Of a DNA stretch of 64,000 bases, positions 3,497-3,581 are shown piece after piece; the stretch's first letter is position 1, and every line of letters starts with the position of its first letter. Both the position numbers and the translations under genes were made by a program. This DNA is from Enterobacter phage vB_Ecl_id4496, in sequence record PQ824230.1; one strand, given 5' to 3'. The notes beneath the pieces are model-generated. The model worked only from the letters and a program-made list of their open reading frames with translations, ran no database searches and was not told the origin of the DNA.

Positions 3497-3581
3497 GCTA
3501 GGGTTGCTGAGTGGCCAAAGGCAGCGGATTGCAAATCCGCCGGGTATCCCTTCGTGAGTTCGAATCTCACTCCTAGCTCCA
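3497..3581 (+). tRNA. 85-nt long-variable-arm (type II architecture) tRNA with anticodon GCA and discriminator U73 (Cys identity elements)
   Basis: Acceptor gctaggg/tcctagc, Ser-like D arm gct-gagtggccaaa-ggc, anticodon stem gcgga/tccgc with loop ttgcaaa, 13-nt variable arm containing hairpin ggg-tat-ccc, T arm gtgag-ttcgaat-ctcac, CCA. Confidence 0.6.

Follow-up and report, generated by a model that had tools for sequence, protein, structure and literature searches.

A tRNA-Cys(GCA) gene with a long variable arm in Enterobacter phage vB_Ecl_id4496 as an example of an under-described, widely distributed variant

The class II tRNAs of bacteria are given as those for Leu, Ser, Tyr and Sec, and tRNA-Cys is given as class I (e.g. 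PMC4810241, PMC7609411). The selC* tRNA-Cys of anaerobic bacteria (Mukai et al. 2017, PMC5389517) combines a long variable arm with U73 and a Cys anticodon, and in the allo-tRNAs and the nematode nev-tRNAs (PMC5389517, PMC3333845) a long arm is found with an anticodon other than those for Leu, Ser or Tyr. Here a gene at 3497-3581 is described from the window, by which is meant the whole stretch of 64,000 nucleotides (nt) of Enterobacter phage vB_Ecl_id4496 (PQ824230.1) that was analysed and to which all window coordinates refer. The phage is of the Karamvirus type (T4-like Straboviridae, the group of Enterobacter phage PG7), and the tRNA region of the window shows 100% identity to phage EcL8g and 99.4% to PG7. 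The gene carries the anticodon GCA on a type II body and is most probably a functional phage tRNA-Cys charged by the host cysteinyl-tRNA synthetase (CysRS). Its parts are as follows.

3497-3581, + strand: long-variable-arm (type II) tRNA-Cys(GCA) gene, 82 nt plus templated CCA (ARAGORN, Rfam, fold and orthologs)
3531-3533, + strand: anticodon GCA, within the loop UUGCAAA (3529-3535) on the stem GCGGA/UCCGC
3541-3553, + strand: 13-nt variable region CGGGUAUCCCUUC, with the hairpin GGG-UAU-CCC at 3542-3550 and then UU and C48
3578, + strand: discriminator U73 (T in the DNA), read from the sequence, a major CysRS determinant
3579-3581, + strand: genome-templated 3' CCA; the neighbouring tRNAs encode CCA too

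A tRNA-Cys(gca) was called by ARAGORN at exactly 3497-3581. The Rfam tRNA model scored 48.0 bits on the same interval (E = 2.9e-8, gathering score 29), and its alignment placed 11 inserted bases in the variable region. The acceptor stem, GCUAGGG (3497-3503) with UCCUAGC (3571-3577), has seven pairs including G7.U66 and is followed by U8 U9. The D stem has the pairs G10-C25, C11-G24 and U12.G23 and a G13.A22 mismatch; it is taken as 3 base pairs (bp), with an 11-nt D loop of sequence AGUGGCCAA. All pairs are formed in the T arm, GUGAG-UUCGAAU-CUCAC, and every position is paired in the 7-bp acceptor and 5-bp T stem (a 7/5 branch). The T loop, G18 G19, U8 and A14 are canonical, and the minimum-energy structure from RNAfold recovered the acceptor, anticodon, variable-arm and T helices. 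A sequence-only reading of this DNA had described the same D arm, anticodon arm, 13-nt variable arm and T arm, and this description is accurate when the sequence is read directly; the ARAGORN check that it proposed gave tRNA-Cys(gca).

The same reading had kept a sequencing error as a way out. The 85-nt gene is present at 97.6-100% identity in 28 phage records from independent isolates, many of them annotated as tRNA-Cys, and the anticodon loop is invariant among seven aligned Karamvirus sequences. A sequencing error is therefore excluded. The differences within Karamvirus are some changes in the D loop, the replacement of G7.U66 by A7-U66 or G7-C66, which improves the pair, a variable loop that is 2 nt longer in phage RZH (UAUAU for UAU) and, in one contig only, a single G-to-A change in the outer pair of the variable arm. 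The ortholog in Escherichia phage EcS1 (Kagamiyamavirus) is 85% identical and keeps all stems including the extra arm. GCA, U73, the acceptor stem and the T arm are unchanged there. In the anticodon stem 27:43 goes from G:C to C:G and 28:42 from C:G to U:A, in the D stem U12.G23 becomes C12-G23, and the variable stem is wholly replaced, GGG/CCC becoming AGCG/UGCU. Given the 97.6-100% identity, the pair-preserving differences and the compensatory changes in EcS1, the gene is under purifying selection as a structured RNA. Degenerate tRNA-like elements do occur in phage tRNA clusters, an example being that at 3284-3411 of the window, and the gene might on that ground be taken for a decaying or non-functional remnant. 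With its helices all intact, its canonical T loop, G18 G19, U8 and A14, its templated CCA, its conservation in 28 records and the compensatory changes against EcS1, this is exceedingly improbable.

The extent of the long-arm form was examined by pattern scans. The scan of IMG/VR viral sequences used ATTGCAAAT, 21-30 bases and GTTCGAATC, which is long-arm spacing, and gave 33 loci. Of these, 29 are tRNA-Cys(gca) genes of 83-89 nt comprising 22 distinct sequences, and all 22 have seven acceptor pairs, a variable region of 13-18 nt and U73. The viral scan with short-loop spacing gave at least 106 distinct tRNA-Cys with variable loops of 4-8 nt. The comparison of the two scans indicates that the variable length is bimodal, and the long-arm form is thus a real minority. 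The long-arm pattern applied to bacterial assemblies, one genome per species, gave at least 80 long-arm tRNA-Cys genes. Among the matches listed, to which the bacterial counts below refer, U73 is present in all whose contig reaches position 73, and the great majority of the genes are from Phycisphaerae (Planctomycetota), where they are single chromosomal copies that do not encode CCA. A complete Phycisphaeraceae chromosome has its copy flanked by a SecA-like gene and glutamine synthetase. The listed bacterial matches from outside the Phycisphaerae lie in dense CCA-templating tRNA clusters that are phage-derived in appearance. The occurrence in Phycisphaerae suggests a putative housekeeping use and is counted in favour of a working tRNA-Cys.

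The 22 phage sequences and 66 distinct bacterial sequences together make the 88 that were used for analysis of the variable arm. In an alignment of the 22 phage sequences, two-sided compensatory change is observed at 15 of 22 consensus pairs. RNAalifold on the MAFFT alignment recovered the four standard stems with covariation and missed the variable arm, the variable regions being of different lengths. The arm was tested instead by folding the variable region of each sequence, with a shuffle control: a hairpin of at least 3 bp is formed in 84/88 sequences compared with 35% of shuffled variable regions.

U73 and GCA are the major determinants for CysRS (PMC9976931), as the sequence-only reading had held, and both are present in the window tRNA, with G34 C35 A36 in a 7-nt loop. 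They occur together in 88/88 distinct long-arm tRNA(GCA) (22 phage, 66 bacterial), and U73 is found in 105 of the 106 short-loop phage tRNA(GCA) among the matches listed. On the phage contigs with a long-arm Cys gene, tRNA-Leu has A73 (17/17), tRNA-Tyr has A73 (5/5) and tRNA-Ser has G73 in 19 cases and U73 in 2. The discriminator tracks the anticodon, as would be expected if it were selected by the cognate enzyme. The anticodon arm is identical to that of E. coli cysT (GCGGA TTGCAAA TCCGT) at 16 of 17 positions. The leucyl enzyme requires A73 and A15:U48, and the strong determinants for tyrosyl-tRNA synthetase (TyrRS) are A73 and U35 (PMC9976931). The window tRNA has U73, G15:C48 and C35 and thus lacks both sets.

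We propose that the gene would be co-transcribed with its Arg, Leu and Thr neighbours and the tRNA excised by host tRNA-processing enzymes, the CCA end being templated already. The host CysRS would then attach cysteine by way of U73 and the GCA anticodon, and the product would decode UGC and UGU in phage messages, supplementing the host tRNA-Cys. The variable region would have grown from the usual 4-6 nt to a 13-nt hairpin on a standard 7/5 cloverleaf. A precedent exists in that CysRS charges the long-arm selC* tRNA-Cys, shown for one native enzyme in vitro and for engineered variants in vivo (PMC5389517). The selC* tRNA has a tRNA-Sec-like 8/4 branch with longer acceptor and anticodon stems, and often the anticodon UCA and dedicated SelB*/CysRS* partners (PMC5389517), whereas the window tRNA is a plain 7/5 molecule in a phage without such partners. 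Its 7-bp acceptor and 5-bp T stem likewise set it apart from the 8/4 or 9/3 branch of the selC* and allo-tRNA groups.

Several points weigh against charging by CysRS. The canonical class I tRNA-Cys, E. coli cysT, shares GCA, U73, G1-C72, the 7/5 branch and a 3-bp D stem with a 13:22 mismatch with the window tRNA. However, it has a variable region of 4-6 nt rather than a 13-nt hairpin, G2-C71 and C3-G70 rather than C2-G71 and U3-A70, and a core of G15:G48 and A13:A22 rather than G15:C48 and G13.A22. Since this E. coli-type core is replaced (PMC9976931), an enterobacterial CysRS could charge the tRNA poorly. The discriminator U73 is also carried by the tRNA-Ser(UGA) of this phage type, so that U73 alone does not exclude seryl-tRNA synthetase (SerRS). 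The pattern scans demanded ATTGCAAAT and GTTCGAATC, and the sampled family is therefore biased to these motifs. Finally, expression, charging by CysRS and decoding on the ribosome are steps that we infer. The objection from the core is weakened because most of the short-loop phage tRNA-Cys listed have G15:C48 (15:48 is G:C in 71, A:U in 23 and G:G in 1, n = 104). G15:C48 is likewise found in the tRNA-Cys of GAP32 and CBB, two jumbo phages of enterobacteria. The E. coli-type core is a lineage-specific feature.

The sequence-only reading had left a choice between an unusual tRNA-Cys with an extended variable arm and a Ser-type tRNA that reads UGC/UGU. In the latter case SerRS, which is indifferent to the anticodon, would charge the tRNA through its long arm and UGY would be read partly as serine. 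A long variable arm is indeed present. U73 is found in the tRNA-Ser(UGA) of PG7 (L001 1294-1385) and of EcS1 (L002 2838-2931), with G73 in the tRNA-Ser of T4 and E. coli, so that the host SerRS presumably tolerates U73, and serylation is presumed for allo-tRNAs that combine a non-serine anticodon with G73 or U73 (PMC5389517). As Ser identity lies mainly in the variable arm together with G1-C72 and G2-C71, which are conserved in bacterial tRNA-Ser (PMC9976931), the geometry of the arm and the acceptor pairs were compared with those of other tRNAs.

tRNA-Ser (n = 24): variable region 16-23 nt, stem 5-8 bp (23/24), unpaired 3' bases 0-1 (23/24)
tRNA-Tyr (n = 7): variable region 13-17 nt, stem 3-4 bp, unpaired 3' bases 3
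tRNA-Leu (n = 21): variable region 11-17 nt, stem 2-5 bp, unpaired 3' bases 2-3 (19/21)
Long-arm tRNA-Cys (n = 88): variable region 13-18 nt, stem 3-5 bp (83/88), unpaired 3' bases 2-3 (76/88)

The arm of the window tRNA,.(((...)))... in dot-bracket form, forms a stem of 3 bp and leaves three 3' bases unpaired. The Ser geometry, a stem of at least 5 bp with at most one unpaired base before position 48, is absent, as is the 4-5-nt variable loop of a class I tRNA, and the phage type's own tRNA-Ser has a variable stem of 7 bp. What is found is the Tyr body: type II, a short variable stem and three unpaired 3' bases. The geometry is thus Tyr/Leu-like and not Ser-like. The acceptor has G1-C72 but C2-G71 in place of G2-C71. 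U73 in 88/88 long-arm tRNA(GCA), against the 19 G73 and 2 U73 of the tRNA-Ser in the phage contigs, the likeness of the anticodon arm to that of host tRNA-Cys, a feature for which SerRS would exert no selection, and the chromosomal long-arm gene of Phycisphaerae all argue in the same direction. A serine-accepting tRNA is accordingly very improbable. The choice falls on the tRNA-Cys with an extended arm, with GCA and U73 invariant in the family, discriminators that track isotype and nearest bodies that are short-loop tRNA-Cys. The allo-tRNAs and nev-tRNAs keep Ser or Leu identity elements and have a mistranslating or non-translational role, the allo-tRNAs also having the 8/4 or 9/3 branch. In contrast, the discriminator and anticodon arm of the window tRNA fit the amino acid of its own anticodon, and its arm is not Ser-like.

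The Tyr-like arm raises the question of ancestry. The only E. coli BLAST matches of the window tRNA are tRNA-Tyr, and whole-body identity is 0.72-0.74 to E. coli tRNA-Tyr compared with 0.59-0.64 to tRNA-Ser and 0.50 to E. coli tRNA-Cys. E. coli tRNA-Tyr (tyrT/tyrU) shares with the window tRNA the length of 85 nt, U8 U9, a near-identical D arm with the D loop AGUGGCCAA, G1-C72 and a 13-nt variable region of 3-bp stem, triloop and UUC tail, with the same dot-bracket; a single base separates GUA from GCA. From the BLAST matches and the shape of the arm, the first idea was recruitment of a tRNA-Tyr gene to Cys by U35C and A73U, an alloacceptor switch which in a stronger form would leave the tRNA still partly charged by TyrRS. 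This idea was downgraded, the short-loop tRNA-Cys being nearer outside the variable region and having the same D arm. When the variable region and loops are removed, the nearest sequences are short-loop phage tRNA-Cys among the matches listed, which are 0.80-0.84 identical over the acceptor, D and T stems, whereas the best tRNA-Tyr is 0.68-0.70; the acceptor and T stems of E. coli tRNA-Tyr are not especially alike. The type-II-like 20-nt D region is not Tyr-specific, being common to 68/106 of the short-loop phage tRNA-Cys listed. Nearest-neighbour typing of all long-arm Cys genes was uninformative, the non-Cys neighbours scattering over Leu, Ser and Tyr. E. coli tRNA-Tyr has GUA and A73 where the window tRNA has GCA and U73, and with A73 and U35 both missing (PMC9976931) tyrosylation is unlikely. 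On balance the recruitment of a tRNA-Tyr gene is decidedly unlikely.

When the hairpin GGGUAUCCC is taken out of the window tRNA, C-UUC is left as an ordinary 4-nt loop, and GAP32 and CBB have UGUUC at this place. Because the gene outside the hairpin resembles the common short-loop phage tRNA-Cys, the likeliest history is that of a phage tRNA-Cys lineage in which the variable loop was expanded, or was gained and lost repeatedly, and not that of a recruited tRNA-Ser. This is the simplest history; the change in the variable loop may have run in either direction.

The arm of a tRNA-Cys might also have a selected role of its own, as protection against a nuclease or toxin by which the host attacks tRNAs, or as a point of attachment for a phage or host factor. 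The hairpin is kept through compensatory change between genera and across the 88 sequences, and long arms are found on other isotypes that normally have short loops, with cognate discriminators, namely Asn (G73 in 69/73 among the matches listed), Gly, His, Lys and Thr. Evasion of host anticodon nucleases by sequence changes is known for phage tRNAs (PMC10264068, PMC10802454). However, no nuclease, toxin or binding factor was found linked to the window tRNA-Cys. Long-arm and short-loop tRNA-Cys coexist in similar phages, sometimes on one contig (L004, L034), which fits near-neutral variation, and Phycisphaerae use the design chromosomally, outside any phage context. We regard such a role as unlikely for the window tRNA. 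A broader proposal, doubtful though somewhat less so, is that long arms on nominal class I tRNAs (Cys, Asn, Gly, His, Lys and Thr, with their own discriminators) are a recurrent selected phage design. The 7/5 type II tRNA-Cys would then be an unrecognised fourth bacterial long-arm isoacceptor family native to Phycisphaerae, and the arm would have its own function, e.g. the protection of phage tRNAs from tRNA-directed host defences or their marking for a partner.

The preferred reading remains that of an ordinary tRNA-Cys with an unusual arm. A 7/5 long-arm tRNA-Cys or tRNA-Asn is not described in the literature searched, which included PMC8762117 and covered few subscription journals. The Karamvirus papers give tRNA lists and codon usage only, with the structure of tRNA-Cys unmentioned. 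In this phage the gene already carries an annotation and has an ordinary function; what is under-described is its architecture, a variant of wide distribution that is known here from 22 distinct phage and at least 66 bacterial versions of the plain 7/5 form, all with the CysRS determinants. The long-arm tRNA-Cys is therefore an overlooked natural variant and neither an error nor a code-changing tRNA. The practical upshot for this phage would be that it supplies its own tRNA-Cys and that UGY is not recoded. If charging is confirmed, a class II body would be tolerated by CysRS and probably by the asparaginyl enzyme too, and the divide between class I and class II would be less strict than the textbooks have it. 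Caution would be needed wherever annotation software or a tRNA-seq pipeline takes isotype from arm length, and tRNA engineers would have natural scaffolds that tolerate an extra hairpin.

The gene lies in a tight cluster of tRNA genes, whose other members are listed here.

3415-3749, + strand: tight tRNA cluster holding the tRNA-Cys (ARAGORN), spacers of 1-6 nt
3415-3492, + strand: tRNA-Arg(UCU) (ARAGORN)
3588-3672, + strand: tRNA-Leu(UAA) (ARAGORN)
3674-3749, + strand: tRNA-Thr(UGU) (ARAGORN)

A scan of 2900-4100 found no sigma-70-like promoter or intrinsic terminator inside the cluster. Since the spacers are only 1-6 nt, the Arg, Cys, Leu and Thr genes are presumably on one transcript. The Cys gene precedes Arg in the Karamvirus strains myPSH1140 and CW742 and in EcS1, and in Jiaodavirus, which has Arg-Leu...Thr, it is absent. 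The Cys gene therefore moves within the tRNA cluster. The suggestion of the sequence-only reading that it occupies the slot of the T4 tRNA-Ser(UGA) is unsupported. The T4 gene is also a type II tRNA within a T4-like tRNA cluster, but it is a separate gene with G1-C72, G2-C71, G73 and a 7-bp variable stem, and its neighbours differ: the T4 order is Gln-Leu-Gly-Pro-Ser-Thr-Ile-segB-Arg-rnaD-rnaC and that of the window Arg-Cys-Leu-Thr. The Karamvirus ortholog of the T4 gene is found elsewhere in the cluster, the tRNA-Ser(UGA) of PG7 (L001 1294-1385) lying upstream of the window with His and Trp as its neighbours, and the identity of the window tRNA to it is 0.59. By position and by similarity, then, the window gene is no ortholog of the T4 tRNA-Ser.

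Other observations were made in these clusters. The Klebsiella phage ATCCa, a Jiaodavirus, has after its tRNA-Thr a stretch of 80 nt that is annotated as tRNA-Gln-CTG (L286 1884-1963), and at the same locus there is an unannotated gap of 124 nt between Leu and Thr. ARAGORN called a type I tRNA-Tyr(GUA) after Leu in two Karamvirus-like contigs (L018 1438-1513 and L026 4673-4748, - strand). These calls were rejected; the Tyr(gta) label is a one-base mis-framing, since the alignment shows the loop UUUGUAA of the window tRNA-Thr(UGU).

An unannotated tRNA-like element lies just upstream of tRNA-Arg, at 3284-3411 on the + strand. Its acceptor stem is of 7 bp (TGTTCAG/CTGAACA) and its D arm is Leu-like; the T arm, ACAGG-TTCGAGT-CCTGT, is perfect, but about 47 nt are inserted in place of the anticodon arm. 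The element is conserved in EcS1, where it precedes the Cys gene (L002, about 5878-5997). T4 makes stable tRNA-like small RNAs, and the element may be one of that kind. Homology to T4 rnaC or rnaD was considered and rejected, the alignment consisting of a shared T-arm motif only. The 95-nt 'tRNA-Met(cat)' of ARAGORN and GenBank (window 1-10 and PG7 L001 1514-1608) shares with T4 rnaC (species 1 RNA) the 5' half (ACGGAACGTTCGGATATGGT), the T arm and the 3' acceptor strand. It is probably a homolog of rnaC rather than a tRNA for methionine.

Long arms were also seen on other phage tRNAs. PG7, whose genome is of the same type, has an 85-nt long-arm tRNA-Asn(GUU) with G73 at L001 279-363, a place some 1.3 kb before position 1 of the window. 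Its variable region is 15 nt, ((((....))))..., and its anticodon arm is identical to that of E. coli asnT at 17/17 positions. PG7 is without tRNA-Tyr and without a short-loop tRNA-Asn; EcS1 has a type II tRNA-Tyr and a short-loop tRNA-Asn. The long-arm tRNA-Asn in viral contigs number 73 distinct sequences among the matches listed. Long-arm viral tRNAs with a class I anticodon and the matching discriminator include Gly(UCC)-U73, His(GUG)-C73 and Lys(UUU)-A73, and in three with Thr anticodons the discriminator varies (A73, U73, G73). The loci of this Gly/His/Lys/Thr-anticodon set are L009 6213-6298, L028 8887-8973 (- strand), L004 12382-12468, L004 3614-3695, L010 1014-1094 and L023 1201-1284 (- strand).

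A further family, tRNA-Ile(UAU)-like and 90-94 nt long, was found at L041 5908-5999 (- strand), L043 12174-12265 (- strand), L065 3509-3600 and about 15 more viral loci. It has a variable region of 22-24 nt (TTAGCGCCAGATTAGCGTTCTTGA) and a D arm like that of tRNA-Sec and allo-tRNAs (GACT-TGGT-AGTC), and recalls the allo-tRNA(UAU) group described by Mukai et al. 2017.

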